DNA of 64,000 nt from an uncultured Verrucomicrobiae bacterium (lineage in GTDB: Bacteria; Verrucomicrobiota; Verrucomicrobiia; Palsa-1439). Below, piece by piece: positions 5,088-32,110 of the stretch. The stretch lies in assembly GCA_963712025.1 (NCBI GenBank), contig CAVQGJ010000011.1, forward strand, positions 455,929 through 519,928, given 5' to 3'. The notes below the pieces were generated by a model, which worked only from the letters and a program-made list of their open reading frames with translations, was not told where the DNA came from and searched no databases. How positions within the stretch are numbered: position 1 is the first letter of the stretch; each line of letters starts with the position of its first letter. The translations under genes were made by a program, and so were the position numbers.

Positions 5088-5465
5088 GGGCCAGACTCCT
5101 TGTGCGACTCCATTACCCTACCACAATCCTCCGCCATCGCGCCAGCCGGAATTATTTTGGCGTTGTCGCGGGGCGTACTTGGATCCGCGGAACCCTTTCG
5201 CGGCTGACCACATTCACGTCGCATCGGCCGGGCGTCTCTCAGCCGCCAGCCTCCGCCCGGAATTCCGCCACTTGTTTTTCCAGTTCGCGCACGCGGCGAG
5301 TCAACTCCGGCAACTGCTGCACCGCGATCATCTGCCGCTTGGCCCACCCGCCCCCGCGACCAGCAAGACCTCAAAAAAAGCCTTGCCTGTTACGCGTGAA
5401 CCTCCTACGCTGCCCGCATTACCCCGTTTGTTCCAACAACAATGGTGAAAGGAGCGCAGTGTCCA

Positions 5466-6245: not shown

Positions 6246-6275
6246 TCGAATCACTGCGCGAAAGTTAACTGGGAA

Positions 6276-6306
6276 GCGGCGGGCGTTCAGCAACCACGCC
6301 CGCCGC
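6276..6306. terminator. GC-rich hairpin between convergent genes (possible bidirectional terminator)
   Basis: GCGGCGGGCG (6276-6285) pairs with CGCCCGCCGC (6297-6306), with an 11-nt loop. No clear U tract. Confidence 0.3.
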
Positions 6307-6317
6307 GCCCTGCGCCG

Positions 6318-7082
6318 TTACACTCCCCTCGCCACGGCCAGCGCGACGACCTCCCTCGCGCCAGCTCCGCGCAACGTCTTGGCGCAACTGTCCATCGTGG
6401 CGCCGGTCGTAAACACGTCGTCCACCAGCACGAGGCGCTTTCCCGCAAAGCACTTCTCATCGCGCACGGCGAATGCCCCGCGCAGGTTCCGCGCCCGGGC
6501 TTCGGCATCCAGTTTGGTCTGTGTCCCGGTATCCTTGACGCGGCGCACCTTCCCTTTGAGAACAGGAACATCGAAAACCCGGCCCACCCCGGCCGCGAGG
6601 TATTCGGCTTGGTTGAACTCGCGCTGGCGCTGCTTGTGCGGATGCAATGGCACGGGAACGATGCCGTCGATCTCCCGCCAGTCGATCCACCGTTGCGCCG
6701 CTCCCGACAACCAATCCACCAGATGCCGGCCGAAATACATCTCGCGATTGTATTTGAAACGGAGAATGCAGTCGCGGACGACCCCTTGCGCGCGGCAGGC
6801 GCACACGGTTCGGCTGAAATAGAACCGCAGGTCCTGGCAATAACCGCAGACGAACGTTTCGCCCGTGACCGTCCCCGTGAACGGCGAGGCGCATTGCCGG
6901 CAAAACGGCGGCTCGATCAGTTTGGCCGAGCACACGCACGCGGGACAGACAATGCCGGGATCCGTGTCGGCCAGCGGACAACCGCAGAAGGGACAATTCC
7001 GCGGCCAGACCAGGTCTAACGCGCGGCGTGCCCAGAGTTGGAGGGCGCGGGGTTGCGCAGTGGTTTGAATACCGTCTGACAT
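6318..7082 (-). CDS. comF: ComF family protein (phosphoribosyltransferase-like with N-terminal Cys clusters)
   Basis: C-terminal 254 aa of ORF 6318..7736 from ATG 7082: ..CPFCGCPL..CPACV..CRQC..CGYC.. then the PRTase motif RLVLVDDVFTTGAT. Confidence 0.75.
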   Translation of the reverse strand: MSDGIQTTAQPRALQLWARRALDLVWPRNCPFCGCPLADTDPGIVCPACVCSAKLIEPPFCRQCASPFTGTVTGETFVCGYCQDLRFYFSRTVCACRAQGVVRDCILRFKYNREMYFGRHLVDWLSGAAQRWIDWREIDGIVPVPLHPHKQRQREFNQAEYLAAGVGRVFDVPVLKGKVRRVKDTGTQTKLDAEARARNLRGAFAVRDEKCFAGKRLVLVDDVFTTGATMDSCAKTLRGAGAREVVALAVARGV

Positions 7083-7924
7083 AACCACACCATCAGCACG
7101 AGCAGTGCCACGAGCATCGGCCAGGACGCCACGTCCTGTGTGACATCGACAGTGGCCGACCAGCGCATAAACTCGTTGACCAGCACCCAGCCCGCGTGCA
7201 GCCCAATTGGCAGATATAATGCCTTCGTCCGGGCGTAAGCCAATCCCAAAACGCACCCGGCCAGAAACAGCGATACGAACCCAACGAAAACACCCTTCTG
7301 GACCAACGACTGTGTCACGATCCAGACAAGGCACTGCCAGCCGCTGGCCCACGTGACCTGATTGGCCGGGATGTTCACGCCATTCGGCTTCAGGAAATGC
7401 GCCGCCGAATACACCGCGCCGGCCAGGAGAACGGCGACGGTCATGTTCAGGCGACGTTGCAAGGCGCCTTGCAGCGCCCCGCGGAAGAACGTTTCTTCGA
7501 TGACCGCAACCGCCACACCCACAAACAGGAATTTCACCACGGCACCCGCCATTTGTCCCGAGGTTTTGGTGAACACCAGCCGGTGGCCCCCGAAGACGAC
7601 GATCACGGCAACCATGATCGTCAGTGTCGCCACGCCGAGGATGTATCCGCCCAGGGCGTGCCGCCACCATCCGCGCGCCCGCACGTAGCCGATGTCGCTC
7701 CAGAACCGGAACCCGAGCACCCGCAGCAACGGCCACAATCCAGCCAGCGCCACGAGCATGATCGATCGGTCAAAGATCCGATGGAACGGGTACGTGGCAT
7801 ACACGCGCAGGGCGGACACGCGCGGGGCCACCTGTTGCACGGCCCGGAACAGCCACGGCGCCAGCAGCGCGCCGAGCAGGATGACGGCGACGAAATAAAG
7901 GCCGATGGCCCGGGACGCTCTCAA
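7016..7924 (-). CDS. CPBP family intramembrane glutamic endopeptidase
   Basis: 302 aa, multi-TM. Motifs IEETFFRGALQ and AVYSAAHF. TTG start. The 3' end overlaps the comF start by 67 nt. Confidence 0.7.
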   Translation of the reverse strand: MRASRAIGLYFVAVILLGALLAPWLFRAVQQVAPRVSALRVYATYPFHRIFDRSIMLVALAGLWPLLRVLGFRFWSDIGYVRARGWWRHALGGYILGVATLTIMVAVIVVFGGHRLVFTKTSGQMAGAVVKFLFVGVAVAVIEETFFRGALQGALQRRLNMTVAVLLAGAVYSAAHFLKPNGVNIPANQVTWASGWQCLVWIVTQSLVQKGVFVGFVSLFLAGCVLGLAYARTKALYLPIGLHAGWVLVNEFMRWSATVDVTQDVASWPMLVALLVLMVWLCQTVFKPLRNPAPSNSGHAAR

Positions 7925-8263
7925 TTACGTTTCGCTGGGCCGGTGAAGTTCCTGGGGCGTGAACACCTTGTGCCGCTGGACTTCATTGTCGGCCTTTTCC
8001 GACGGCGAGCCGGGGTCGATGATTTCCGTGTACCGAATCGAGCTGTGGGGAATCCAATACACCTTGGTATCCGCCTCGACCGGCCGCTCCAGGAGCGCGG
8101 CCGATTCCAAATCCGGATGCTCTTGGAACCGCCGCCCGCTGACGCGCACCCCGGTTTCATCAACGTCGGTAATGATGCCCCGAACGATTTCCCGGGGTGT
8201 CTGCGGGTGAAACCGCCGCAAGACCACTTTCACCCGCTGGCTGAGTAATCCGTTTGTGTCCAT
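7925..8263 (-). CDS. hypothetical protein (112 aa)
   Basis: ORF directly downstream of gspD and abutting the CPBP gene. No recognised motif. Confidence 0.5.
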   Translation of the reverse strand: MDTNGLLSQRVKVVLRRFHPQTPREIVRGIITDVDETGVRVSGRRFQEHPDLESAALLERPVEADTKVYWIPHSSIRYTEIIDPGSPSEKADNEVQRHKVFTPQELHRPSET

Positions 8264-19684: not shown

Positions 19685-19743
19685 CACATTTTCACCTCTA
19701 CGATATGAGACACCACATTCCTTGTCAATGGCACAAGAAATCG

Positions 19744-19763
19744 GGTAGTGTCCTAATTTGAAA
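19744..19763 (+). repeat. left terminal inverted repeat GGTAGTGTCCTAATTTGAAA (flanked by TSD AGAAATCG at 19736-19743)
   Basis: Exact reverse complement of 32020-32039. The tip matches the IS1-family end consensus GGnnnTG. Confidence 0.85.
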
Positions 19764-20165
19764 ACTTCGCATAGCAGGGTCAATCAGGCCCATGGCAAGA
19801 AAAGGCCAACATTCCCCCATCCTGACCCCAGCCTTATTGACTGGAAGCGAATCGACAAGGGCATTCTGCATGAGGTGCGCGTCCTGCGAGCCAACGGCAT
19901 CGAGACGACGGAATCCTGTCAGGGCGGACACGGGCATCCGTTCCCGGAGCCTACGGTGCGATTCTGCGGTGGAGAAGCCGCCGGATGGTTTGCGCTTGGC
20001 ATCGCGATGCAAGAGCGCCTAGCGGTGAACGAGCTTCGGAGAATCTGGCGCATTATTGATGGCGTGCCCACTGGCCCGGAATGGGAAATAACATTCGATC
20101 ATCCCGGTGTCGGGCCATGCCCGGTGGATAGAGGAGACGGGAAAGCCACTTGGCGCTGGCGCTAA
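19758..20165 (+). CDS. hypothetical protein (up to 135 aa; start uncertain)
   Basis: ORF with a TTG start inside the left TIR and no early ATG. ..GIETTESCQGGHGHPFPEPTVRFCGGEAAGWF.. No recognised domain. Confidence 0.4.
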   Translation: MKTSHSRVNQAHGKKRPTFPHPDPSLIDWKRIDKGILHEVRVLRANGIETTESCQGGHGHPFPEPTVRFCGGEAAGWFALGIAMQERLAVNELRRIWRIIDGVPTGPEWEITFDHPGVGPCPVDRGDGKATWRWR

Positions 20166-20169
20166 AGCC

Positions 20170-20394
20170 CTACTTGCCTTTTCGGTCTAGCTCATTGCAA
20201 TCGTCACACAACGGTTTCCCGCCCGTACCCTTCCGTCGATTGTGCGGAGGTATCTCACTGCCCGGTCCGCATTTTGGGTTGTCGTGATGGTGTTTCTCTT
20301 TTACGGAATACCACGTATTTTTCCCGGCGTGCTTGGCGATGGAAAGCCCGCTTCCCAATCCTTTGGAGCGGTTGCCCGCTGGCTTGTTTTTCAT
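20170..20394 (-). CDS. small Cys/His-containing hypothetical protein (74 aa)
   Basis: MKNKPAGN..KHHHDNPKCGPGSEIPPHNRRKGTGGKPLCDDCNELDRKGK. Resembles a widespread family of small GTGGK..C..C proteins. Confidence 0.5.
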   Translation of the reverse strand: MKNKPAGNRSKGLGSGLSIAKHAGKNTWYSVKEKHHHDNPKCGPGSEIPPHNRRKGTGGKPLCDDCNELDRKGK

Positions 20395-20457
20395 GCGGGC
20401 TGTTATCGCGCCATGCGGACGCCTAGACAACCAGAAAAGCGAACACCCCGGCATCCA

Positions 20458-20721
20458 TCATTCCCTCTGGATGTTGACATTCGCTCCGCCATCGGAAGTG
20501 ACCACACAAATCAGCCTTCCGGTCTCCTCGCTCCTGTTGTTCTCCCATTGGACCGGACGTAAGCCTCTCCGGTCGATTTCCCATCCGAAGCCCGACTCGT
20601 GGTTTCCGTGCTCGCTGCGCACAATCCACGCGCCGCATTCGTCTTTACGCGCTTTGGCCGGGTCATGGCTTGCTACCGTATCGCCATTTCTCCACGCTTG
20701 CTCTATCAAATCCTCATCCAC
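20458..20721 (-). CDS. HNH-endonuclease-like small protein, catalytic core apparently deleted
   Basis: ..RKDECGAWIVRSEHGNHESGFGWEIDRRGLRPVQWENNRSEETGRLICVVTS. The family normally reads GWEIDH-about 15 aa-NLRPLQWENN. Confidence 0.55.
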   Translation of the reverse strand: MDEDLIEQAWRNGDTVASHDPAKARKDECGAWIVRSEHGNHESGFGWEIDRRGLRPVQWENNRSEETGRLICVVTSDGGANVNIQRE

Positions 20722-20904
20722 AGTAGCCTCCCGTGTGACACATGATTACTGGGTAGTCGAAACGCGAAGGCCCGGCCATCCAACCTGACCGGAAGCCAAG
20801 TCCGGGGGAAGGACAGCCGAGCCGTCGCAGTCAGAGCCTACGAGCCTTCCGAATTGCTGTCAACACCATCACGCAACTCAGCGGCTTGGGCTGGTAGCCG
20901 GATT

Positions 20905-21132
20905 TCATCGGCGGTTCTTCTTTCGCTTTGGAGCGGAAAAATCCCGAGCAGGCATCCACACCGCATCCATTTTCGGCTTCTTGTCCGGTGCCGACATACC
21001 GATGAGTCTCAGCGACCGGAAGGCAGCCTCCTTGTCGCGGAATGCGGCCAGCGGGCGATACTCGCCATCGTACAGGGCCGAAATCACGTACACTTTCTTC
21101 GTCGGTACGATTGGAATTAGTTGGTTGCTCAT
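20905..21132 (-). CDS. small hypothetical protein (75 aa)
   Basis: ATG 21132 lies 4 nt after the stop of the upstream TPR gene. MSNQLIPIVPTKKVYVISALYDGEYRPLAAFRDKEAAFRSL.. Confidence 0.5.
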   Translation of the reverse strand: MSNQLIPIVPTKKVYVISALYDGEYRPLAAFRDKEAAFRSLRLIGMSAPDKKPKMDAVWMPARDFSAPKRKKNRR

Positions 21133-21135
21133 GCT

Positions 21136-21741
21136 TCATCCTCCTTGGCCTTGGCGATGGTCTGTCGTCAATCCATTGCCAACACTGTCTCGCAACTCAG
21201 CGGCTTGTTGGCATGTCTCTGCTGATTCTCGGATTCGGCCAAGCCGAAACAGAATCTTGCCACGGTGGTTTATCACACGGGCCGCGTCCTTGCGCATTTC
21301 GGGATATGGATTTGCGCTCATCAATTCACGGTAGAGCCGGATGGATTCGTCCACCGTTTTCAATGCCTCATCGAACCGATTCAGTTGAAACAGCGCATCG
21401 GCTTTGGTCGATAACGCATAAGCGATGTCGATTCGGTACTGAGTAGCGCCCGCCTCGACCGCCTTCCGGTAATTGTTAATGGCGGCATCGTTGCTTGCCA
21501 CTGATTCTTCGTACTGCATAAGGCGAAACAGAACTTCGCCAGCATAGTATTGAGTCTGAGCCAAATCGGTTACGGATTCGACCCCACCATCTCGTGCGAG
21601 CCGCTCGAAAATTTCCGACGACTCATGGAATCGCTCAAGCGCCTCTTTGTAAGAATCCCCATCAATACACTTCAAGCCGTCACGGGCCGCCGCAACAGCG
21701 CCATCACGGATAGCTGCGTGGTCTTTGATAGTTTCAGCCAT
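21136..21741 (-). CDS. TPR-like helical repeat protein (201 aa), cassette A
   Basis: Paralog of 22786-23292 (shared ..VASNDAAI..AGxxxYxIxIAYALSTxADALxxLNRFxExL..). C-terminus CQQAAELRD. Confidence 0.6.
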   Translation of the reverse strand: MAETIKDHAAIRDGAVAAARDGLKCIDGDSYKEALERFHESSEIFERLARDGGVESVTDLAQTQYYAGEVLFRLMQYEESVASNDAAINNYRKAVEAGATQYRIDIAYALSTKADALFQLNRFDEALKTVDESIRLYRELMSANPYPEMRKDAARVINHRGKILFRLGRIRESAETCQQAAELRDSVGNGLTTDHRQGQGG

Positions 21742-21760
21742 GTTACATACCTCCTAGCAT

Positions 21761-22264
21761 CTAGCGGACAAAGGTGTGTCCTCCCCATCCGCGCCGGTGG
21801 CGTCGCCCAAATTCCGCCTCGGCCAGTTTGTCGCACCAATCTGTGCGGCCTGATTCAACCAGTGTGCGGATAGCTCGCGCTGCGTCGGAGTACGACTGCT
21901 CGGCGCTAACGCCACACGCCGCATTGGAGCGAGCGTCTATCAAGAATGCGATGGCCGCAGATTCGTCTGTGTCACGAGCGTTGTCCCATGTCTCGCGCCA
22001 TCCACCGTTTTTGACGCGCTCCCGACACGATGGACAAGCCCACACCCCTTCAATGCGATTAGCCTCGCGGATGTCGAGTCGGCCCGGGCAGAATTCACAG
22101 AATCGGAACGGTTGCTGTTCCAGCGCCTTCGCGCCAGCCGTGCCTAGACAGCACAAGCAAATGAATTCACTCCGACCAGCAACGGTCGGGTGTGTCTGCA
22201 TGTGATTCCATTGGCCCCGATAGAGACCGACCTTGCCGCAGAGTTGGCAGACCTGCGAACCCAT
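21761..22264 (-). CDS. Cys-rich (multi zinc-ribbon-like) hypothetical protein (167 aa), first gene of cassette A
   Basis: CQLCG..CLCC..CEFCPG..CPSC motifs. Directly preceded by structured leader copy A. Confidence 0.55.
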   Translation of the reverse strand: MGSQVCQLCGKVGLYRGQWNHMQTHPTVAGRSEFICLCCLGTAGAKALEQQPFRFCEFCPGRLDIREANRIEGVWACPSCRERVKNGGWRETWDNARDTDESAAIAFLIDARSNAACGVSAEQSYSDAARAIRTLVESGRTDWCDKLAEAEFGRRHRRGWGGHTFVR

Positions 22265-22284
22265 CTTGTCCCGTTTCCCTTCCT

Positions 22285-22466
22285 GCGATCAGGACAAACA
22301 GAAACCGCGCTCGGTCAGGAACGCGGTTCAATCTGCGTGGAGTTACTGTTCGGACGGTCATTCGCCGCCCGCACATCGACCGGAGCAACTTACTCTGGTC
22401 AAGCCACCGTGGGACTCCCGCCCCGGTTGGCAGATTCGGCTTTCACCGAATCGTTCCTGATGCTGG
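22285..22466 (-). ncRNA. candidate structured 5' leader RNA, copy A (ends in a terminator-like hairpin 22303-22328 plus a U-rich tract)
   Basis: About 85-90% identical to 24046-24257. Several hand-foldable hairpins. Promoter immediately upstream, RBS and ATG about 20 nt downstream. Confidence 0.55.
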
Positions 22467-22470
22467 CGCG

Positions 22471-22498
22471 ATTATACACCACGCCGTCGCTGAGTCAA
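22471..22498 (-). promoter_or_regulatory. sigma70-like promoter for leader A
   Basis: Minus strand TTGACT (22498-22493), 16-nt spacer, TATAAT (22476-22471). The conserved leader begins 5 nt downstream. Confidence 0.55.
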
Positions 22499-22505
22499 GC
22501 TCGGA

Positions 22506-22760
22506 TTAGAGCATCTCGACTTGATTGCTTCTTACACCATCCGCTTTTGGACTGGCAAACGGGTCTATGCGCGGCGGACAATCGAGGCGTTCAGTCTTGT
22601 TCAACAAGCCCTCGATGGTGAGAATCTGAACACGCGGATAGTCCTTGTCACTCCACAGTTTTGATGTGTAGCAGTTTGCCTCCACTGCTTCCAATTTCAT
22701 CTTCGACGTTGGCGGGTCGAGTGTGATGAGCACGCCCGCCTTGAACCCCTGATTGCCCAT
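22506..22760 (-). pseudogene. C-terminal fragment of a DNA methyltransferase
   Basis: ..KAGVLITLDPPTSKMKLEAVEANCYTSKLW..YPRVQILTIEGLLNKTERLDCPP. This is the typical C-terminus of N6/N4 methylases, and no upstream catalytic part is present. Confidence 0.55.
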
Positions 22761-23292
22761 GTCTGCCTCGCACGACTGACGAAACCTGGCGGATGGATTC
22801 CTCCACGACTGTCAACGATTCCTTGAATCGATTCAAGCGATACAAGGCATCGGCATTGGTGGACAGCGCGTAAGCAATGTGGATTTCGTACTCGCTCTGG
22901 CCTGCGTTGACCAATTCCTGCCACAACCGGATGGCCGCGTCGTTGCTGGCGACACATCCCTCGTACTTGGCGTTGTGGAAGAAGCCTTCGCCCGTGTCAT
23001 AGTGCGCCTCCGCCAAATCGCAGGCGAATTCGGCATGGCCGCGATTGACCAGCCGCTTGAATACTTTCAATCCCCTTCGGAAACACGCGAGCGCCTCTTT
23101 GTGGTGACGGTCATGGAGCAACTTCAACCCTTGCGTCATCACGTCTGCCGCGTCATTTCGCTCTTGTTCTGACACAATCTTGTCGGCCATCTGGTTAGCG
23201 AACGCCTCGAATTCGGCTTTCGTGGCACCGCCGCTAATGAATCCAAGCGGCACCATGTCCGGTGTTTGGATGAATGGGGGGTTAGGATTCAT
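22648..23292 (-). CDS. TPR-like protein, cassette B second gene, truncated and fused into the methylase remnant
   Basis: ATG 23292 (MNPNPPFIQ..). Paralogy to 21136-21741 stops after ..TVVEESIRQ (about 22786). The remaining ORF reads out of frame across the methylase fragment. Confidence 0.5.
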   Translation of the reverse strand: MNPNPPFIQTPDMVPLGFISGGATKAEFEAFANQMADKIVSEQERNDAADVMTQGLKLLHDRHHKEALACFRRGLKVFKRLVNRGHAEFACDLAEAHYDTGEGFFHNAKYEGCVASNDAAIRLWQELVNAGQSEYEIHIAYALSTNADALYRLNRFKESLTVVEESIRQVSSVVRGRHGQSGVQGGRAHHTRPANVEDEIGSSGGKLLHIKTVE

Positions 23293-24025
23293 GGTCGGTT
23301 GCGCCTCCACTCTTGACCTGAGCGTGCAATTCGGCGGCTCGCTGATAGCACGCGCTGGCCTCCGCTGCCCGATGCAGCCCCTTCAACGCATGGCCTTCGC
23401 ATCGCAGCGACCAGATGAGGACATTCTTGAATCGCTTTTCGTCGGTGGGGCCGCTTATCCCGTCCAGAGCTTCAACCGCGCCGTGAGCGCAAGTCACGGC
23501 TTCGTCAAATTGTCCACGGTTGCAAAAGATGATGCTTTTTTCCGCGAGTACCCATGCCGTCTCCTGTAGCGCGTCGGCCCGCAACGTGCCGCCAAGCAAC
23601 CGCTGGTAGACGGCCAGAGCCTCACCGAGTCTAGTCAGTGCATCGTCGAATTTTCCCGCCTTTCGGAGCGACTGGCCAATGGTAAAGAGCGTGATGCCGA
23701 ATTTCAACACCATGGGTTCACTCCATCGGTCAGACCAGTCGAGATACGCCGCGCCCACTTTGGCGAAAACGCCCAGTCCTTCGTCAAATTGGCGTGAGTG
23801 AACAAAATGCAGCGCATAGTCAAGCAGCGCGTCTACTCGTTCCGGCGGCAAATACGTAAGACCCCGATGCGCGGCAGCGCCGCCAATGATTTGGATGCCG
23901 CCGCCAATCATCTGGTCGGTGATGTCCTGAATCTCCACCTTGCTGCCGTCGGTCGTCGCCGGGTCATACTCGCCAAGGTCGGATAATCGCTTCGGTGCTT
24001 CTGACTGATTGCTGGTCCCACACAT
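23282..24025 (-). CDS. TPR-like helical repeat protein (247 aa), first gene of cassette B
   Basis: Helical repeats. The C-terminus CYQRAAELH resembles that of the other cassette proteins. Preceded by leader copy B. Confidence 0.6.
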   Translation of the reverse strand: MCGTSNQSEAPKRLSDLGEYDPATTDGSKVEIQDITDQMIGGGIQIIGGAAAHRGLTYLPPERVDALLDYALHFVHSRQFDEGLGVFAKVGAAYLDWSDRWSEPMVLKFGITLFTIGQSLRKAGKFDDALTRLGEALAVYQRLLGGTLRADALQETAWVLAEKSIIFCNRGQFDEAVTCAHGAVEALDGISGPTDEKRFKNVLIWSLRCEGHALKGLHRAAEASACYQRAAELHAQVKSGGATDHES

Positions 24026-24045
24026 GATGCACCCTGTCCTTTCTC

Positions 24046-24257
24046 GCGATCAGGACAAACAAAAACCGCGTTCGTCAGGAACGCGGTTCAAACTGCGGAG
24101 TATTTTGTTCGGGGATTCCAGTCCAGAGGGCTCTAATTGCCCAAGGAGGGAACCACTCCCGCACATCGACCGGAGCTACTCGCTCCGACCAAGCCACCGT
24201 GCGAACTCCCTCGCCGGTTGGCAGATTCGGCTTTCACCGAATCGTTCCTGATGCTGG
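24046..24257 (-). ncRNA. candidate structured 5' leader RNA, copy B (terminator-like hairpin 24064-24088 plus UUUUUGUUUGU)
   Basis: Same blocks as copy A with a 30-nt longer central hairpin. Compensatory substitutions occur in two stems. Confidence 0.55.
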
Positions 24258-24261
24258 ACAG

Positions 24262-24290
24262 AGAATATCAGGTAACAGATTCGATTGCAA
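24262..24290 (-). promoter_or_regulatory. sigma70-like promoter for leader B
   Basis: Minus strand TTGCAA (24290-24285), 17-nt spacer, TATTCT (24267-24262). Confidence 0.45.
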
Positions 24291-24296
24291 GCGAAT

Positions 24297-26691
24297 TTAG
24301 GCGGGCTGCTTTTCAGATGCTTCCCATCGCGCGCTGGACGCCTTGACCGATTCGTAGTTGGCATCAAGGCTCGGCTGTAAAAGCACAAGCGCAGCAATGC
24401 GACGGGCCATCGCCGTAACTTCTTGGACCTCCTCAACCCGCAACGAGCGGCCAAGCAGCGCATCTTCTCGGTAGCTAAGCCATTTCTTGATGACCTGATA
24501 GCCGCCGATGGTGTAATCCCATATCTGCCAACGCGCCGCGCAATCGCACCGGGAAGTAATAGGCGTCGTCGCGCAACGCATGGTCGTCGCCTAGCAACCG
24601 TGTAAAACAAAATGGCACGCCTTCAGGATTTGCCTTTCCTGTGCATCGTGTAAGCAAGAAACTGTTGCCGGGCCAACATTGCGCCCAAAGCGTAGGACGC
24701 GGTTCGTTCCAAAGCGGTCTGACCCCACTGTAATAGCAGTAGCGGGTATCGAAGGGGCGAACGAAGTATGCTCGCAAATGTGATGGCACGAACTTTTCGA
24801 CGGCAAGAATCTTATTTCTAGTCTTCCTAGCGTCAAATCGTGCCGCGTTCTCGACTAGACCACCTCCTGCTGCCGCAAGCGTTTCCCAAGTCACGTTAGG
24901 GTCACAATATCTTCTCATCCGCTGTTCAAGCGTCGCTTGGTCAGTGTCAATTAGTGTCCCGCCGCGTTTCTCCATCAGACCATTGGGCGGAGCCTGCGCG
25001 CATAATTCAGAAATCTTAGGCCACTTTGCATAGTGGTCGGCAACATTGCCCGGGACGGAACGAGAACCGATTGCTTTTCTTTGGTTCCGCTATGGCGAAT
25101 TTCTCCTCGAATTGCCAAGCACGACCAAAATATCGCCCTCATGTTTCACCTGATTGGCAGCGTCGTACTCCTGTTTCAATTCCGGCATGTTCATTTCCAG
25201 TTGTTGCAGCCGAGCCTTGCCCTCATTAGATGGCGGTTGCCAGCCGGTGAGTGAGTTCGTCAGATAAACACGGACGCGATCAGTCTCGGTGAGCGGGGCT
25301 TTCAGGTTTTGCAACAATAAGCCGATTTGAAGGTGAGAAACCACAAATGGTGCCGGTAAATCTCGAATCCAAACAGACGTTCAAGCGTTGCCTTTTTAAG
25401 CTCGTCTGGAACGGTGGCATCGCCACTATTCTCTTGGAGGGTCGCGTGAATCCTCCTGATGACTTCCAGCAAATAACCCGCCGTTCCACAACAGGGGTCA
25501 AGCACGTGGACGTGCTTGTTGGCGAATCCGTCCTCCAAATCAAGTTCTTCACGCAATATCTTGTCCACTCGCTCAACTTGGTAACGGATAATTTCTCGCG
25601 GGGTCAGCCAGACGCCAAGTTGCTTTCGTAATTCCGGGTCGAAGGCCTTTAGGAATGGCTCATAGAAGTATTGCACGGCCTGATGCTCGTCAAACCGAGC
25701 AAAGAAAGTGGTGCGCTCCACTCGGTTAAGTAGGTTTTCCGTCCACCCTAGGACTTCCGTAAGACCAAGAGGTTTCAATTTGGACGGCGAGGAAACCTGT
25801 TGAAACAACGCTTGGATAACGGGCAGCCTGAGATAATCGACGCACTCCCGCCAGCGAAAGTCATTTTTCCGGGTTGGATTTTCCTTGTGCCATAGAACCC
25901 ACCCGGAGAACACGCCATAGAAAAGCGTTTGCACAAGTGTCGAATGGAAAAAGTGTTGAGCTTCTTCATCCGAGAACTTCATACCCAGTCCTTCTTCCAA
26001 TGCTGTTCGCGTTGAGGCCAATGCTGGCAAATCGGCCTGCTGTTCGACATGGATGCGAGCATCGCGAGCGTAGGACGCGAGAAACCAAGCGACCATTTCT
26101 GGTTCAATTATCGTGGAGGAATTGAGCATCACCCGCTTCAAGTATTCTGCTATCAATTCCCCATGACGCTCTGCCGTCTTGCGAGCATGGTCAGTAGCTC
26201 TCCAAAAATCATCCTCGTTGGTTGCCAAGGAGTAGGTCTCCAGTTCTACTGGCTTTCCATTCGTGTCACGTCCAACCAAGAGAAAGCTCCAGAAATTTGT
26301 CACCAATACTTGACCGTATTTTCCCAAGTACCGTATGACCTGCTCGCCCTTCGCCACATCCCGCAGAGATTCTCCGGCGGGTTTGGCTTCGATTACTCCG
26401 CGGTCGGGGTCCAACTCAGCTAATGGAGGCACGGCTTGGTTTTGTTTGAGCAAAGATGTCGTGAATAATCCGAAGTCGGGAATTCCTTTGCCGTGGTTCT
26501 TCGGATGGTTGATGGAGGTGATCTTAGGTTTGAGTGTGTCGCCAATTGTATTCAGTAGATCGGAGAGAGCCGGGTATCCTGAAGTTTCGTCCGTACCTGC
26601 TCCACGAATTGACTGCACGCGGTTGAGATAGCGTTCTAGCGCCTCGGTAAACTTCGACGTAGTGGTTTTTTCAGGTTTCATCGTCATCATC
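24297..26691 (-). pseudogene. MmeI-like type IIG restriction-modification enzyme remnant (several frame breaks plus an internal deletion of the NPPY region)
   Basis: N-terminal PD..EAK nuclease-like motif (GIPDFGLF..RGVIEAKP). SAM motif I VLDPCCGTAGYL. ..GFEI|LPAPFVVSHLQIGLLLQNL.. ILVVLGN is followed directly by FEEKFAIAEPKKSNRFSFRP. Type-ISP-like C-terminal domain ..WDYTIGGYQVIKKWLSYRE. The pieces lie in ORFs 25302..26879, 25090..25344, 24475..24975 and 24297..24581. Confidence 0.65.
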
Positions 26692-26961
26692 ATCCCACGG
26701 GTCCGGGTAATACCCGGTGTCGTCAGCAATCGCCTTGCTGACACGTTCCGGTATCGAGCCATCCTTGCAAAACTGTCCGGCTTCCTCTGCGGTGACTGGA
26801 ATGGCATCGTTCCATTCACCGACTGTGCCCTTCCAGGGTTTCCACTCGCCGTTGTCGAAAGTGAGTATGCCCCCGCCATCCCTCATCGGCTCTGGGTCGA
26901 TTAACTGGCGAGCGCGGGTTATTGAATATCTGCCATATAGGTCATCGCCCATGCGAGTCAC
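26671..26961 (-). CDS. small hypothetical protein with acidic tail (96 aa)
   Basis: Its start overlaps the upstream gene's stop by 4 nt, and its own stop overlaps the start of the RM remnant. Ends ..YYPDPWDDDDDET. Confidence 0.5.
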   Translation of the reverse strand: MTRMGDDLYGRYSITRARQLIDPEPMRDGGGILTFDNGEWKPWKGTVGEWNDAIPVTAEEAGQFCKDGSIPERVSKAIADDTGYYPDPWDDDDDET

Positions 26962-28067
26962 GAAGCCTGCTTGTCCAACTGTTTCACCCGGTTCTTTAGC
27001 TCGACTTCACGCGCGGCCCATTCCTTGCCGAGCGCCGCGTGCTCCAAGCAGTCAAATAATTCTTCGCTGGTCAAACCACCGTTGCCTAGCAACTTGCCCA
27101 CCGCTTCCCGGTCGCGCTCGACAGCCAACTGCATTTGTTCGAGGTCTTTCACGCCCGCGAACGTCTGCTTGCGGATGGATAGCAGGGTGTCCTTCACCCG
27201 TTCCAACAGGTCGAGATTGCGCAGGAATTTCTCGACGACCAGATTCACCGCGTCCAGCCGGACCGCCAACGTCTTGCCATCTTTCTCGGCTTGCGCTCGT
27301 TCAATGACCATGCGACGCGCCAGCAAGTAGGCGATACGCAGTGGCTCGAAATTGTACCGGGCGCGATCAGTGATGGCCACGAAGCCGCGTTCCTCGAAAT
27401 ACCGTAGTGACCCGACCTCACTTTTGATGGCATCCTTCGCCGTCGCGTCGTCAAGTACGATGATTTGCTCGTCCGACTTTCGGTTGGCCTTCATTTCCAA
27501 CAATTGCGATAACACCGTGTCACCATCCGCGACCACGGCCCGCTTCGCAATCGTACCGAGAGCCATTCCGACTACCAATTTACTTTCGACAGCGATGATT
27601 CGCGGCGACGGCAAGCGAGGGTCGTTGACGGTCACGAGAATATCGCCGGTCTTATTCAGTTCATCCTCAGCCGTCGCGCCGGTAAGCGCCACGGTGTCAG
27701 CTAGTTTTTCGGCTCGAATGATGTCTTTGAGCACGTCGCTGTATTCGACTTCCGCCTCCGCGCCTTTGCGGGTCGTACCGGCCAGAATCTCGCGGTTCTT
27801 ATAGAGCAGTTTGAGGCTTTCGAGTTGCACACCAAGCTCGTCCTCAGTGCGGGCAAGGAACGCGCTTACCCGGTCCTCCATGAGCGCCAGTGACCCGATG
27901 CCGACGGCCTTCCGTACTGCATCGGCGCGGTCGTCGGCCTTGGTGTTGGACAGGTATTCAAACACCAACGGATGCGTGAGCGTGAGGTGGTCAACGACGA
28001 CGGACTTGCTCTCCGCGTCCATCGTGACCTTTTCCTTGTCCGGCACTTTCGCTGGTTGCTTGCTCAT
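26958..28067 (-). CDS. coiled-coil protein with PD-(D/E)xK-like nuclease motif (DUF2130/RmuC-like pattern)
   Basis: 369 aa. ..TRKGAEAEVEYSDVLKDII..TGDILVTVNDPRLPSPRIIAVESKLV.. (D..ExK spacing). Long helical N- and C-terminal regions. Confidence 0.55.
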   Translation of the reverse strand: MSKQPAKVPDKEKVTMDAESKSVVVDHLTLTHPLVFEYLSNTKADDRADAVRKAVGIGSLALMEDRVSAFLARTEDELGVQLESLKLLYKNREILAGTTRKGAEAEVEYSDVLKDIIRAEKLADTVALTGATAEDELNKTGDILVTVNDPRLPSPRIIAVESKLVVGMALGTIAKRAVVADGDTVLSQLLEMKANRKSDEQIIVLDDATAKDAIKSEVGSLRYFEERGFVAITDRARYNFEPLRIAYLLARRMVIERAQAEKDGKTLAVRLDAVNLVVEKFLRNLDLLERVKDTLLSIRKQTFAGVKDLEQMQLAVERDREAVGKLLGNGGLTSEELFDCLEHAALGKEWAAREVELKNRVKQLDKQAS

Positions 28068-28381
28068 TTGCGCCCTTCTTTCTCTTTGATCTCACTGACG
28101 ATGGCCGCTTGTACCGCCTTTTGCGGCGTGTCTATCGGCGGCACTCCCAACACGGCCACGTACTTCGTCTTTTCGTCCTGTGCGCCGTCCAGATGGCTCC
28201 ACGCATAACATCGCTTGGCCTTCGGATGGCCGACCAAATCGAACACTTCCACGATACCGCGCCATGCTGTCTTGCCCTGAAAGACTTCATGCACCGGCAC
28301 GGATTCGATGTGCTTGGAATCGCAGCCGTGCAGCTTGCCGATCACGGCCCGCAGTTCTTCGACGTATTCAGGATTCGCCAC
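28064..28381 (-). CDS. small conserved hypothetical protein (105 aa)
   Basis: MANPEYVEELRAVIGKLHGCDSKHIESVPVHEVFQGKTAWRGIVEVFDLVGHPKAKRCYAWSH.. Its start overlaps the transposase stop by 14 nt. Confidence 0.55.
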   Translation of the reverse strand: MANPEYVEELRAVIGKLHGCDSKHIESVPVHEVFQGKTAWRGIVEVFDLVGHPKAKRCYAWSHLDGAQDEKTKYVAVLGVPPIDTPQKAVQAAIVSEIKEKEGRK

Positions 28382-29198
28382 AGCGTTCTATCAGTTCCGC
28401 AACCGTCCACTGGCTGCTTTCCACGCCTGCCGCTTGTGCGGGAGTCATGCGAATAGCCCCATGCGATTTGCAGAAATTATAGTACGCAAAACTCAGCGCG
28501 ACCGCAGCCTTAAAATTCGGCAGCTTCTTGCTAAAGGCGTTGGTCAACCGGGTGAGGCGTCGGCAGTGCATCCGTAGAGTGTGATTCTGTTTCTCGACAT
28601 GCGAGGTTGTGATTCGGGCAACCAGTGGGTTGCCTTGGATAATTTTCCTTTCGACTTCCACGACCTCTGCCGGGCTGTACCGGCTCGCCGCTTCCTTCGT
28701 GAGATTCGTGACGGAGTAGGTTTTTACAATTTGCCCATAATCGACTTCGCTGCCGAACCCGTAATCGACAGCTTCGGGATAAGTACCAAGAGCGTCTGAC
28801 GAAAGCTGGACGCGATTCGCCAGCCGTCCAGCCAAATCATCCATGAATCGCCGTGCAAAATACCGGTCGCGCTGGCCCACGACAAAGGCAGGAATCAATT
28901 TAGTATCGCAGTCCAAGGCAATCCATGTCCAAACATCGCCATACACGCGCGCCCGTGCCGCGTTCTTTCGCTTGGCTCCAATGAAGCCCCAAATTTCATC
29001 AACTTCGACGTTGCGGCATGGCAGGTTGACCATTTTCGCATCCATGATGGCCTCACAGGCAGTGCCAACGCGGAGGCCTAGCCTCATAATCGTATCCCTG
29101 TGGATGCCCGTCATCCGCTCAATGGAGCGGATGGAATTGCCTTCGGCCAAAGCGCCGATCACCACCGCCTGTTTGTCTGGTTTCAAGTTGTTTGCCAT
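28368..29198 (-). CDS. IS1-family transposase (single-ORF type)
   Basis: 276 aa. N-terminal HTH (EGNSIRSIERMTGIHRDTI). DDE region VEVDEIWGFIGAKRKN..VWTWIALD..LSSDALGTY..TSHVEKQNHTLRMHCRRLTRLTNAFSKK..YYNFCKSH. Confidence 0.8.
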   Translation of the reverse strand: MANNLKPDKQAVVIGALAEGNSIRSIERMTGIHRDTIMRLGLRVGTACEAIMDAKMVNLPCRNVEVDEIWGFIGAKRKNAARARVYGDVWTWIALDCDTKLIPAFVVGQRDRYFARRFMDDLAGRLANRVQLSSDALGTYPEAVDYGFGSEVDYGQIVKTYSVTNLTKEAASRYSPAEVVEVERKIIQGNPLVARITTSHVEKQNHTLRMHCRRLTRLTNAFSKKLPNFKAAVALSFAYYNFCKSHGAIRMTPAQAAGVESSQWTVAELIERCGES

Positions 29199-29226
29199 AT
29201 CGCACCTCTATTCTTTATGGGATTTA

Positions 29227-29272
29227 GTGTACTACAGAAAGTAATGAAGTCAACAACTATTTTGTAGTACAC
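29227..29272. promoter_or_regulatory. operator-like palindrome between the divergent transposase and RHH genes
   Basis: GTGTACTACA (29227-29236) and TGTAGTACAC (29263-29272), a perfect 10-bp inverted repeat with a 26-nt spacer. The core GTAGT resembles the element TIR tip. Confidence 0.45.
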
Positions 29273-29290
29273 AAACTTTTCTTTTGTGCT

Positions 29291-29473
29291 ATGCTTCCTT
29301 CCATGAGCAAACGCATGGGACGGCCCAAGCTGCCCAAGGACGAAGCCCGCAGCATCGTCTTCCAGATTCGTATTTCGCCAAAGGAGCAACGGCGCTTCAA
29401 GGCAGCGGCCCGCAAGGCTGGCAAAGAACCGACCGAATGGGCCAGAAACGCCTTGCTTTCTGTGGCCCTTTAG
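29291..29473 (+). CDS. small ribbon-helix-helix-like DNA-binding protein
   Basis: MLPSMSKRMGRPKLPKDEARSIVFQIRISPKEQRRFKAAARKAGKEPTEWARNALLSVAL. The beta-strand then two-helix pattern is typical of the CopG/Arc type. Confidence 0.5.
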   Translation: MLPSMSKRMGRPKLPKDEARSIVFQIRISPKEQRRFKAAARKAGKEPTEWARNALLSVAL

Positions 29474-29484
29474 CGTATAGAGAT

Positions 29485-29578
29485 TGGCGGAAGCTGAGGG
29501 AGTCGAACCCCCATCGCTGGTCAGAGCGAGACCATTGGGGTGTAAAGTCCAGTTGCGCACCGGCGCGGGTCAGCTTCC
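29485..29578 (-). tRNA. selC-like (tRNA-Sec / allo-tRNA-like) gene with a non-canonical anticodon arm; possibly a pseudo-tRNA
   Basis: GGAAGCUGACCCGCGCCGGUGCGCAACUGGACUUUACACCCCAAUGGUCUCGCUCUGACCAGCGAUGGGGGUUCGACUCCCUCAGCUUCCGCCA. It has an 8-9 bp acceptor stem, a T arm with UUCGACU, a D stem with the 4-nt loop CGGU, a long variable hairpin and an encoded CCA. Confidence 0.5.
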
Positions 29579-29913
29579 AAAAGTGATAGCCTACGCGGGC
29601 CGTGCACAAGATCAGTGGAAGCTGAGTGTGCGCGGCCCGCCCTTTTGTATCCTCGCGCTTGTCCCGGACCGGCCATGCCAGGGGGCGCTCGCGACTAATA
29701 CTTGGTGCATCATGGCGATTTCCTTTCACACGCGCACCATATCGAATCGTGCCTGACCACGTAAGAGACCGGATGGAAAGCGGCCCGTGGCGTTCACGGG
29801 ACACGCTGCCGAGCGGGGGAAGTCTCAGGGGGGACAAGAAGGGGGTGCCTTGGTGTCCCCAAGGGGCTACTGAGGGGGTGCCTTGATGACCCTGCGGGAA
29901 AGCGGACGCGAGA

Positions 29914-30501
29914 CTACTGCGGCGGCCCGCGTTGGAGAAACCTCAGTCCAATCCGATGGCAAAGTTTCTTCGTGCGTCCAATATCACCAACAATGCTCTT
30001 TTGAAGTTTGGAACACAGCCACTCGTGGACTTGTGGAATGCTCCGCAGAGCATTGACCTCGGTTTGGTGTTGCAGGAGTATCTGGTAGATCACCAGAGCC
30101 GTTGTCGCCGCTTTTGGAAGGCGCTCAGGATGCCGGTCATATTTCTGGAAGCATTTAATGCCGTGAAGGAATCCCCGGATGAAGTCCTCGCTTTCTTCCA
30201 GAGTCGAATTCGTGAGCGTGAGCCGTACCGTCGTACCGATAATCACCAGCGTTGACTGGCATTTATCCACCACCAGCTTCGCCTGTTTTGGCGATAGCTT
30301 TTTCATTCCGAGACTGCGACGGTCACGAATGCGGGCGAATTGCGCGAACTGGTATCCCTGCATGGCCCCTTGCCGGAACTTGGTTGATGGTTTTGGGCCG
30401 AGTGGAACGTACATCCGAAAGATGAGATTCGTGACGTTGCCCACCCAAAGCGGCTCCTTGGGGTCCGGCCAAGTGGCGTTCGTTTCGCGTTCCGGTGTCA
30501 A
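29914..30501 (-). CDS. hypothetical protein (up to 195 aa)
   Basis: ORF only. A possible internal start is MKKLSPKQAKL. No recognised domain. Confidence 0.4.
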   Translation of the reverse strand: MTPERETNATWPDPKEPLWVGNVTNLIFRMYVPLGPKPSTKFRQGAMQGYQFAQFARIRDRRSLGMKKLSPKQAKLVVDKCQSTLVIIGTTVRLTLTNSTLEESEDFIRGFLHGIKCFQKYDRHPERLPKAATTALVIYQILLQHQTEVNALRSIPQVHEWLCSKLQKSIVGDIGRTKKLCHRIGLRFLQRGPPQ

Positions 30502-30615
30502 CGCGAGTCACGTTACTACTTCGGTCGCAGGAAAGGCAATTGCACTCTTGCGGTCAGAGTTTGCGCGTGACTACATCACCGGGAGTTGATATAAGCACGA
30601 CGTGGCAGGAATTCC

Positions 30616-31062
30616 ATGAAAGCTGAAATCTTTACCCTTTGCGATGCAGCAACAGCAGATGCGACAACGGGCAAGTTAAACATTCTCGGGAGTTTCGACC
30701 GATTTTGGTTTCCTCAGATGCCCGCAATGACACCGTTCTTTGCCTTGGCAGCCAAAATCCGATTCACGCAGAGCGAGGAAGGAAACAAGAAAATTCGGAT
30801 TCTGTTTATGGATACTGACGGAAAACCGGTAATACCTAAGCTTGAGGTCGTGGCACCAGTTCGTTTTGCACCAAACGATACGACTGCCACTTTGCAGTTT
30901 GCGATGATACTTCCACCGCTAAAACTAGCGAGTTTTGGGGACTACTCGATTGAGTTATCTGTAGACCAGACGGAATTGGCGACGTGCCAGTTGTCTGTGC
31001 GACAATCTCCCCCGTCGCCCCTGTCACCGCAACAATTCCAACCGCCGCCGCCGCCTTCATAA
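30616..31062 (+). CDS. hypothetical protein (148 aa) with Pro-rich tail
   Basis: MKAEIFTLCDAATADATTGKLNILGSFDRFWFP.. ATG preceded by GGAA. Lower GC than the core genome. Confidence 0.5.
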   Translation: MKAEIFTLCDAATADATTGKLNILGSFDRFWFPQMPAMTPFFALAAKIRFTQSEEGNKKIRILFMDTDGKPVIPKLEVVAPVRFAPNDTTATLQFAMILPPLKLASFGDYSIELSVDQTELATCQLSVRQSPPSPLSPQQFQPPPPPS

Positions 31063-31324
31063 GAAAACCCCTCGTGCTATACCAGCCAACGAATCTCCGT
31101 GGATACGGTATAGCCGCGCATGTCTGATTGTCAACCAGTTTGATGCAGACTGGCATTTGAGAAATCTCGTGTACCACCAGAATGGTCGCGCCAATGACCA
31201 GAAGAAGGAGCGGGACCCAAAGCTGTCCGCTTCTGTCAGCGAGCATCATGACCGGAGCCGTTACAGCCGCCCAAGCCAGCGAAAAACGCCAGACGAACCG
31301 ATTATTGCTTTTGAGAATACTCAT
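30836..31324 (-). CDS. putative small membrane protein; 3' end uncertain (the ORF runs antisense into 30616..31062)
   Basis: N-terminal about 85 aa have two hydrophobic helices (FSLAWAAVTAPVMML, LWVPLLLLVIGATILVV). The remainder is probably not translated as such. Confidence 0.3.
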   Translation of the reverse strand: MSILKSNNRFVWRFSLAWAAVTAPVMMLADRSGQLWVPLLLLVIGATILVVHEISQMPVCIKLVDNQTCAAIPYPRRFVGWYSTRGFLMKAAAAVGIVAVTGATGEIVAQTTGTSPIPSGLQITQSSSPQNSLVLAVEVSSQTAKWQSYRLVQNELVPRPQA

Positions 31325-31574
31325 TTTTCAAGTCCCTATATACCTTCAGCACTATTCTAGCCACAATTGCAGTAAATACAAGCGCGTCCGTGATGGCGGA
31401 AATGCTCACCAAATACTCGATTAGCAATATGACGTGTGACGGTTCATCATACCGCATCGCCAGTTTCTCAATGAGAGCAAGACCAACTGCGAACACAAGC
31501 AGGCACAGGCAGAGAATGAATAGTTCAAACGAGTCCCTGATGGTCTGCTTTGTCCCTGCCGAGAGAATCTCCAC
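31302..31574 (-). CDS. small membrane protein (90 aa), AT-rich
   Basis: Hydrophobic helices (LFILCLCLLVFAVGLALI; SISAITDALVFTAIVARIVL). Overlaps the next ORF's start by 23 nt. Confidence 0.4.
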   Translation of the reverse strand: MEILSAGTKQTIRDSFELFILCLCLLVFAVGLALIEKLAMRYDEPSHVILLIEYLVSISAITDALVFTAIVARIVLKVYRDLKNEYSQKQ

Positions 31575-31675
31575 ACGGTTTGTTGTACCGCAAGGTCATC
31601 ATTTACGGAAGCCAAATCAGACGCGGCCCGTTTCCCGTTGACGCGATTCACGCACTGGTGCGATGATGCCGCACC

Positions 31676-31981
31676 ATGAATCCACCGCTCCCGTCCAGAT
31701 TAGGCAAGACATCGCACCGGAAGAACATTCATGGCCACCCGATGGTCTATACTGTGATTGACGAGGATGTATTTATCGCTGCGACAAATCCGAAGAAGGC
31801 GTTTGCGATTCATAAACTGAAATCTACTGATGGCCGAGAGAATTTTCGCATCGGTTACTATATGATTGCTGAACGTCCACGAGTGAAGGGGAAGTGGGCA
31901 TGGGGTCAATTTGCGCCAACAATGTCCAAGGAAGAAATGATAGCTATTTTTGACCGAGCCAAGGCAAAGGGCTGGATTTGA
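31676..31981 (+). CDS. small hypothetical protein (up to 101 aa)
   Basis: ..MVYTVIDEDVFIAATNPKKAFAIHKL..FRIGYYMIAERPRVKGKWAWGQFAP.. Last ORF before the right TIR. Confidence 0.45.
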   Translation: MNPPLPSRLGKTSHRKNIHGHPMVYTVIDEDVFIAATNPKKAFAIHKLKSTDGRENFRIGYYMIAERPRVKGKWAWGQFAPTMSKEEMIAIFDRAKAKGWI

Positions 31982-32019
31982 GGCGAAAGTAGCCCAACCA
32001 CTCACGTCAAGAGCCGGAA

Positions 32020-32039
32020 TTTCAAATTAGGACACTACC
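32020..32039 (-). repeat. right terminal inverted repeat (flanked by TSD AGAAATCG at 32040-32047)
   Basis: TTTCAAATTAGGACACTACC on the plus strand is the reverse complement of 19744-19763. Confidence 0.85.
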
Positions 32040-32110
32040 AGAAATCGGCGGATTTGCGTAATGCACACGGCAACAGCCCTGTAGTGCCGCCAGCAGAGGA
32101 CCATCGGCGC

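Follow-up and report, generated by a model that had tools for sequence, protein, structure and literature searches.

A transposase-led gene chain in a Verrucomicrobiia genome as the probable centre of a 12.3-kb IS1-family cargo transposon

Introduction

To what kind of unit does a transposase gene belong when further genes follow it on the same strand in overlapping or nearly overlapping order? The question is raised by a stretch of 64,000 nucleotides (nt) from an uncultured Verrucomicrobiae bacterium (GenBank assembly GCA_963712025.1, contig CAVQGJ010000011.1, positions 455,929 to 519,928), which is called the window here and whose first letter is position 1 in the coordinates below. A first-pass annotation of this DNA described an IS1-like transposase heading a passenger operon for proteins of 105, 369 and 96 amino acids (aa) and a type IIG restriction-modification enzyme, and proposed a nuclease-based defence or addiction module. 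The analysis presented here leads to a wider reading, in which the flagged region is very probably the centre of a 12.3-kb IS1-family unit transposon with a conserved core and variable cargo on both sides. All genes of the proposed operon do lie inside one transposon, but the 105-aa open reading frame (ORF) belongs to the core and not to the passengers, and the flagged chain is only the middle of an element that spans 19744-32039.

An insertion sequence is commonly regarded as a transposase gene and little else, and surveys count it only as a disruptor of genes. Insertion sequences with passenger genes are already known, as is the IS1 family itself; the four-part core, the constant and often defence-type cargo and the sizes up to 12-13 kb are new. 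No description of this element family was found in the literature on IS1 with passenger genes or defence cargo, or in that on tRNA genes inside insertion sequences and on S-adenosylmethionine (SAM) riboswitches tied to defence.

Element ends and insertion site

The end sequence of two related elements (L025 and L026, described in the next section), GGTAGTCACCTAATTTG, was used as a query against the 64-kb window and gave two good matches, inverted relative to each other, at 19744 and 32039, where the chance expectation is 0.04. The two ends consist of the same 20 perfect bases, GGTAGTGTCCTAATTTGAAA, in inverted orientation, and the eight bases AGAAATCG are found immediately outside each of them as a perfect direct repeat. 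The left terminal inverted repeat, which is the transposase-upstream end, lies at 32020-32039 on the minus strand with its copy of the duplication at 32040-32047, and the right one lies at 19744-19763 on the plus strand with its copy at 19736-19743. The element so delimited, present in one copy in the window, measures 12,296 bp, and its transposase is read on the minus strand. Because perfect 20-bp repeats are combined with the same 8-bp duplication on both sides, we conclude that 19744-32039 was inserted as one piece, and these observations establish both the boundaries of the element and its mobility as one unit.

The insertion site is flanked by a GspE/PilB-like ATPase gene and a UvrD-like helicase gene. 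The GC content at third codon positions is 0.61-0.72 in the genes of the element versus 0.83-0.84 in the flanking host genes, and the GC profile drops across the element, whose genes are of foreign composition. A tRNA or transfer-messenger RNA (tmRNA) gene was considered as the integration site of an island and was rejected, because the tRNA-like gene of this locus is internal to the element and not at its border; ARAGORN, and Rfam at gathering thresholds, report no tRNA or tmRNA in the window.

Related elements in Verrucomicrobiota

A scan of genomes with the transposase yielded 80 loci, almost all of them in metagenome-assembled genomes of Verrucomicrobiota. The examination of end repeats took in 82 loci, i.e., the 80 genome loci and the metagenome loci L001 and L008, and end repeats with a perfect 8-bp duplication were found in 53 of them (52 genome loci and L001). 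A common end-repeat consensus is shared by the window element and these 53 related elements, and the bounded elements in genomes are 1.9-6.5 kb in size. L025 and L026, which are present on one contig with inverted GGTAGTCACCTAATTTG ends, share 99.96% identity over 2410 bp and differ in the 8-bp direct repeats around them, which points to recent transposition in the family.

The expanded structure of the window element has counterparts. L001 is a 13.2-kb metagenome element with its own perfect duplication, AAACTCGA, and carries the same transposase, 105-aa and 369-aa genes together with an intact type IIG gene and genes for HD-domain and tetratricopeptide repeat (TPR) proteins. In L013, which is 6.5 kb long and again has its own duplication, the transposase is 95% identical to that of the window, and the similarity ends where the 105-aa gene ends. 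Every bounded element has cargo between the left end and a divergent ribbon-helix-helix (RHH) gene, and in many there is more of it past the 105-aa gene, before the right end. The 133 cargo ORFs surveyed include matches to PIN, DUF4411 with Peptidase_M78, P63C, AbiU, AIPR, GmrSD and HNH proteins, as well as DNA methyltransferases and type IIG enzymes; as judged from these matches, the cargo of the family is of predicted defence, abortive-infection or toxin type. The mobility core, which is conserved family-wide, consists of a tRNA-like gene, the divergent RHH gene, the transposase gene and the 105-aa gene.

Cargo transposons that spread defence systems, e.g., Tn7-like transposons, have been described by Benler et al. 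(2021, mBio; cited in PMC13323075). The present family resembles them in having a conserved mobility core with highly variable cargo, which is likewise rich in restriction, abortive-infection and toxin genes. Unlike the Tn7-like transposons, its machinery is one IS1-type DDE transposase without TnsABC(D/E), and it has no obvious attachment-site specificity, because the target duplications of the family have no common consensus.

Transposase and its coupled partner

The transposase gene (28368-29198, minus strand) encodes 276 aa and matches Pfam DDE_Tnp_IS1 with 39.2 bits (cut-off 24.1). The residues D67, D135 and E202 are invariant, as is R209 located seven residues past E202, and the catalytic triad is intact. 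More than 8000 relatives are present in databases, nearly all of about 275 aa. The helix-turn-helix and DDE domains occupy one 276-aa frame, unlike classical IS1 with its InsA/InsAB' arrangement and programmed -1 frameshift. The IS1 family includes single-ORF members and ISMhu11-type members with passenger genes in the ISfinder classification, and we take the single-ORF transposase found here to be consistent with the single-ORF subgroups.

Like IS1, the element has terminal inverted repeats and a target-site duplication in the short (8-9 bp) range, here of 8 bp. Classical IS1 ends begin GGTAATG, versus GGTAGTG for the terminal repeats here. Members of the IS1 family are roughly 0.8-4.6 kb in size, whereas each bounded copy of the present family has cargo and sizes reach 12-13 kb. 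The core also goes beyond that of IS1 by three parts, namely the tRNA-like gene, the RHH gene in divergent orientation and the 105-aa gene coupled to the transposase gene.

The 105-aa gene (28064-28381, minus strand) starts at a GTG whose reading frame overlaps the TGA of the transposase gene by 14 nt, in agreement with the first-pass annotation. A homologue stands directly 3' of the transposase gene in about 78 of the 80 genome loci, usually with a GTG or TTG start and an overlap with the transposase stop, for which 11 nt is the commonest length. The gene is thus predicted from this arrangement to be translationally coupled to the transposase gene, and its presence in nearly all loci makes it a core partner and not a passenger. 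No Pfam match was obtained for 39 homologues of the 105-aa family, and no PDB match in a profile search against PDB sequences. The 105-aa ORF was also considered as a C-terminal transposase domain, whether frameshifted or fused, and this was rejected, since the ORF is in the +1 frame and never fused; database transposases of 367-405 aa are N-terminal over-extensions, all of which end in ...CGE.

The 369-aa nuclease

The third gene of the chain (26958-28067, minus strand) is joined to the 105-aa ORF by the 4-nt overlap ATGA, as had been annotated. Its 369-aa product, which has a C-terminal coiled coil, has ten close relatives among 5.8 billion proteins, and a profile search of 1.84 billion cluster representatives gave a family of 387 members. 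An alignment of 88 full-length members, extending down to about 20% identity, has E106, G141, D142, E161 and K163 invariant. The motifs KGAEAEVE, GDILVTV and IIAVESK, which the first-pass annotation had noticed, are present and fall on the columns invariant across the 88 members. The likeness to DUF2130/RmuC proposed there was not borne out: no match of the protein in Pfam, NCBIfam or PADLOC speaks for it, and the nearest families are Mrr-like and PDDEXK_15. Pfam PDDEXK_15 is passed by 11 of the 88 members, the best with 28 bits versus the cut-off of 27, and a SAP domain is present in 10 of them. No PADLOC nuclease model and no DUF4297 model matches any member of the family.

A first structure model, built from 11 sequences, was too weak, with a predicted local distance difference test score (pLDDT) of 71, and it was rebuilt with the 88-sequence alignment, which gave a pLDDT of 84.8. 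In this model, the catalytic residues are placed on the helix 98-119 and the strands 143-147 and 156-163 of an alpha-beta-beta-beta-alpha-beta core, and the protein further has a small beta/helical domain at its N-terminus and long C-terminal helices, which form a coiled coil of about 130 residues. The nuclease fold was supported by the fold search, in which a Mrr-domain protein from a giant virus, Cafeteria roenbergensis virus, was the best match in BFVD (E=1.3e-5, probability 1.00, 358 columns). The top PDB fold matches were MspJI, Ecl18kI, PaqCI, MUS81, SwaI, SPARDA and BamHI, all with E>=0.02, and the profile of the family gave only chance coiled-coil or insignificant matches against PDB sequences. 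By motif, model and fold search together, the 369-aa protein is identified as a predicted PD-(D/E)xK nuclease, with a modelled nuclease fold and a conserved putative active site. The E...D...ExK signature and the core on which it lies are those of Mrr/type IV and other PD-(D/E)xK restriction endonucleases; unlike the Mrr-type enzymes, the protein has the extra N-terminal domain and the long coiled coil, and the window member lacks a Pfam match.

The gene is true cargo and not part of the core: it is found in only three elements, and none of the 80 genome loci, L013 among them, has it.

Towards the 3' end of this gene (27005-27071), homology breakpoints lie close together: the similarity to L008 stops at 27012, and 27071 is where the remnant found in L173 (see below) begins. 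They may mark a recombination junction within the last 20-40 codons of the gene. In another locus, L011 (871-1053 on the plus strand, and 460-2607), a 31%-identical homologue directly follows an Avd-like gene, an RT-7 RNA match of 74.7 bits, which is under the gathering score, and a reverse transcriptase gene.

Regulation and expression of the chain

A gene for a 60-aa RHH (NikA/CopG-like) protein, with weak Pfam matches to NikA-like and RHH_10, lies divergently to the transposase gene at 29291-29473 on the plus strand, and homologues occupy the corresponding divergent position in most of the 80 loci. Between the two genes, a predicted palindromic operator (29224-29275) brackets the transposase promoter: the arms of a 10-bp palindrome, GTGTACTACA and TGTAGTACAC, are at 29263-29272 and 29227-29236, respectively, and a sigma-70-like promoter, TTGACT-16-TACACT, runs from 29253 to 29226 between the arms. 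The other elements have the same palindrome-promoter layout with different half-site sequences, as would be expected if a repressor and its operator co-evolved. The RHH protein is a probable repressor, predicted to bind the palindrome around the -35 and -10 sequences. The earlier proposal that the palindrome and the divergent gene are the regulators was strengthened, since their architecture is conserved across the family and the palindrome spans the promoter.

No strong terminator is present between the transposase promoter and 24089. This and the tight spacing of the genes make it plausible that the transposase promoter also drives the cargo. The sequence of events that we propose is as follows. 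The transposon inserted between the GspE/PilB-like and UvrD-like genes of a Verrucomicrobiia genome, bringing as cargo directly downstream of its core the 369-aa nuclease, a small acidic protein, a decayed type IIG gene and TPR genes led by SAM-riboswitch-like sequences. The RHH protein would repress the promoter within the palindrome, and the transcript would run from this promoter through the whole chain, from the transposase gene to the 96-aa gene, and on across the dead type IIG gene to a terminator at 24089-24063. The nuclease might then act as a stand-alone restriction-like defence enzyme, which would benefit the host and thereby the element.

Weighing of the reading and its alternatives

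Several points weigh against a cargo transposon with an active, co-expressed nuclease. The transposase scores 66.3 bits with the IS1 equivalog model of NCBIfam, which is under the cut-off of 100, and it must therefore be regarded as a distant relative of IS1. Weak promoter-like sites occur within the ORF chain. The window 369-aa protein has neither a Pfam match at E<=0.1 nor a PADLOC match, and no PDB fold match at E<=0.001 was found for its model. Finally, stand-alone activity is uncertain, since the distant relatives of the nuclease mostly rely on a HerA-type ATPase, which is missing here.

The last point leads to the alternative that survives best, although we consider it unlikely: the 369-aa protein may be inactive or incomplete in the window, having lost a HerA-type partner. 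Among 80 metagenome loci found with the 11-sequence alignment, distant homologues (30-39% identity) are located directly 3' of a HerA-type ATPase gene in 40 and adjoin OLD/GajA-like ATPase genes in 8. The HerA-nuclease pairs are among L094-L172, with the HerA gene (about 600 aa) upstream, e.g., in L099 at 4998-6779 with the nuclease gene at 6998-8023. HerA-DUF4297 and related ATPase-nuclease pairs are known defence systems (PMC11291478; bioRxiv 10.1101/2024.10.24.620088), and the distant members of the family resemble HerA-DUF4297 in being encoded beside a HerA-type ATPase as a two-gene pair. They differ from it in lacking a DUF4297 match and in the gene order, HerA then nuclease, and the clade of the window protein is without HerA, no HerA gene being found within the 64-kb window. 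Against a loss of function, however, this clade without HerA (64-94% identity) has kept its full length and all catalytic residues in at least six distinct contexts, which argues for purifying selection on a working protein that is stand-alone or differently partnered; TPR proteins recur near the HerA-less nuclease.

It is very unlikely that the 369-aa nuclease and the 96-aa acidic protein form a toxin-antitoxin pair that stabilises the element. The 96-aa gene (26671-26961, minus strand) is adjacent to the nuclease gene with tight spacing, and its product has an acidic tail. The 4-nt overlap between the two genes, a GTGA, is indeed in the sequence, but the source annotation starts the smaller gene at ATG 26952, which is the more probable start and would give a 93-aa product and a 5-nt gap after the nuclease stop. 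Five homologues of the 96-aa gene are known (62-76% identity). In L173-175, the nuclease gene is cut to its last 37 codons (97% identical) and the small gene after it is intact, as expected if loss of a toxin is tolerated; an intact and different type IIG/ISP gene follows next. Obligate co-occurrence, which addiction would lead us to expect, was not found: the nuclease gene occurs without a 96-aa homologue in L001, L002-L007, L008/L009, L010 and L012, and in L176, a decayed element of the family, the 96-aa homologue directly follows the 105-aa homologue with no nuclease gene. Moreover, neither the 369-aa nor the 96-aa protein matches a PADLOC or toxin-antitoxin model.

Slighter still is the chance that the transposase, the 105-aa protein and the 369-aa protein form one dedicated system around a domesticated transposase, serving either defence or nuclease-assisted transposition. 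Such a system might be suggested by the order of the three genes and the ATGA junction, which are the same in the window, L001 and L008/L009, and by the higher conservation in L008 of the nuclease (94% identity) than of the transposase (74%). The nuclease gene is nevertheless missing even from L013 with its closely similar transposase, close homologues of it occur without a transposase, after a TPR gene (L002-L007) or other genes, and the transposase family has fresh transposition events and an intact triad. The first-pass view of the 105-aa, 369-aa and 96-aa genes as a module is not upheld either, since each of the pairs 105/369, 369/96 and 105/96 recurs and the trio does not; this independent assortment is evidence against both a toxin-antitoxin pair and a three-gene module, and we regard the 96-aa gene as independent cargo.

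That an ordinary genomic island was hit by a small insertion sequence unrelated to the outer repeats is hardly credible, for although typical family members are only 1.9-4.4 kb long with the right repeat 30-60 bp past the 105-aa gene, the end-sequence search of the 64-kb window placed no copy of the repeat close to where the 105-aa gene ends. The outer repeats are free of mismatches and conform to the family consensus, with a perfect 8-bp duplication on their outside, and L001 and L013, which have duplications of their own, are expanded in the same way.

The tRNA-like gene

The remaining part of the core is a tRNA-like gene with a long variable arm, the loop CUUUACA and a 3' GCCA (29481-29578, minus strand), which scores 35.5 bits with the Rfam tRNA-Sec model (gathering score 47). 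The window copy has a weak match to the covariance model R1 at the same place and no ARAGORN call, and on this basis it appears to be a long-arm tRNA-Sec/allo-tRNA-like variant under the detection thresholds. The position of the gene is fixed, just beyond the 3' end of the RHH gene and on the transposase strand. Homologous genes are found at this position in at least 36 loci, and a covariance model gave more than 60 bits in 36 matches; examples are L015 5650-5725, L021/L023 5663-5737, L025 5652-5726 and L001 8483-8578, among others. The alignment has 97.2% paired cells, and changes on both sides, the mark of covariation, are seen in 14 of the 16 pairs. Of 43 distinct sequences, 37 have G3:U70, and the loop keeps its UACA motif without exception. 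ARAGORN reported 'tRNA-Stop (tta)', with the anticodon UUA, in 15 loci, and position 37 is C in that register. An anticodon stem is absent from the consensus structure, and the loop around UACA varies from 6 to 10 nt among the long-arm relatives, which makes ordinary decoding doubtful.

Allo-tRNAs with UUA anticodons and G3:U70 have been reported near transposon and toxin genes by Mukai et al. (2017; PMC5389517), where the present IS1-family transposon is not described. The gene found here is like the allo-tRNAs in being tRNA-Sec-like, with a long variable arm, an 8-bp acceptor stem and a UUA-reading loop, in having relatives with G3:U70, and in adjoining mobile-element and toxin-type genes. 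It is unlike them in its fixed position inside the core of a defined Verrucomicrobiota IS1-family transposon.

Jointly with the SAM-switch reading given below, we think it rather improbable that the tRNA-like RNA, with its G3:U70 or a Ser-type long arm, its invariant UUACA loop and its fixed place upstream of the RHH and transposase genes, is a working part of the element life cycle. If it is, it could be an ochre-suppressor or alanine-charged adaptor that alters the termination of element genes, or alternatively it could control the expression of the transposase as a processing or regulatory RNA. TAA is the stop codon in 60 of 82 copies of the transposase gene and in 39 of 52 of the RHH gene (loci L013-L092), which is unusually often at about 60% GC; this excess may partly be forced by the overlapping 105-aa reading frame. 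The core genes of the window copy use TGA and TAG only. Read-through of the transposase stop by a suppressor tRNA was considered and set aside, kept only as speculation, since the extensions are 3-67 aa long and unconserved and the window copy has no UAA.

Significance of the family

The picture of bare transposase genes does not fit this family. In Verrucomicrobiota, its simple one-protein IS1-type machine routinely moves 1-10 kb of cargo, in which restriction enzymes and toxins are found together with abortive-infection genes and a nuclease family that is so far uncharacterised. The elements are thus a bounded vehicle for the flow of defence genes in a phylum with few genetic tools, and may bear on the spread of such genes in soil Verrucomicrobia. 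Since the ends, the duplication and the core genes are defined, the family is a candidate starting point for a Verrucomicrobiota transposon tool. It also offers testable subjects, i.e., the coupled partner of about 100 aa, the conserved tRNA-like RNA and the HerA-associated nuclease family, which is absent from current defence catalogues.

Other cargo of the window element

The restriction-modification gene that follows the 96-aa gene (24297-26693, minus strand) matches PADLOC PDLC03610 and Pfam Type_ISP_C and is a type IIG/type ISP-like pseudogene. The overlap of the 96-aa ORF with its start, noted in the first pass, is present in the sequence, but the gene itself is broken: ORFs of 525, 84, 166 and 94 aa in different frames cover positions 2-404, 411-481, 733-804 and 1019-1057 of the 1096 positions of PDLC03610, respectively. 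The long ORF next to the 96-aa gene bears an N6-methyltransferase signature. An intact ORF of about 1000-1100 aa with nuclease, methyltransferase and specificity domains is lacking, and about 250 and about 200 profile positions are missing. The true start is probably among the methionines of MMMTMK at about 26693-26681.

Downstream of this pseudogene, there are two SAM-riboswitch-like leaders on the minus strand. The first (24063-24259) comprises a SAM-I/IV-like aptamer (24123-24259, 33.1 bits) and a terminator hairpin (24063-24089), and TPR genes at 23282-24025 and 22648-23310 lie behind it. The second unit (22302-22498) comprises a promoter (22471-22498), a SAM-I/IV-like aptamer (22334-22468, 38.5 bits) and a terminator (22302-22329), and is followed by a 167-aa gene (21761-22264) and a TPR gene (21136-21741). 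Both aptamers are under the Rfam gathering score of 41.1, and a homologue in L001 (3470-3604, minus strand) is above it with 42.2 bits. Each window aptamer is followed by a terminator with an 11-bp stem, and one is preceded by a promoter matching at 11 of 12 positions. No such leaders were found beside the other homologues of the 369-aa gene (L002-L012). A rather improbable reading is that the TPR genes, gated by SAM riboswitches, provide a back-up response to a drop in SAM, e.g., where a phage SAM lyase has disarmed the SAM-dependent type IIG enzyme. The SAM-I/IV-like leaders precede a Zn-ribbon-like gene and TPR genes, and they sit beside SAM-dependent type IIG genes.

An 84-aa ORF at 22506-22760 on the minus strand has no Pfam match and resembles the C-terminal end of a DNA methyltransferase by reading of its sequence, and it may be another decayed restriction-modification fragment. 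On the other side of the core, the cargo between the left repeat and the tRNA-like gene (29914-31981) includes small membrane-like ORFs, a 195-aa gene (29914-30501, minus strand) common to L013, L001 and L053, and a DUF6941 gene (30616-31062, plus strand; E=3e-30) that is present in the closest relative, L013, at 87% identity.

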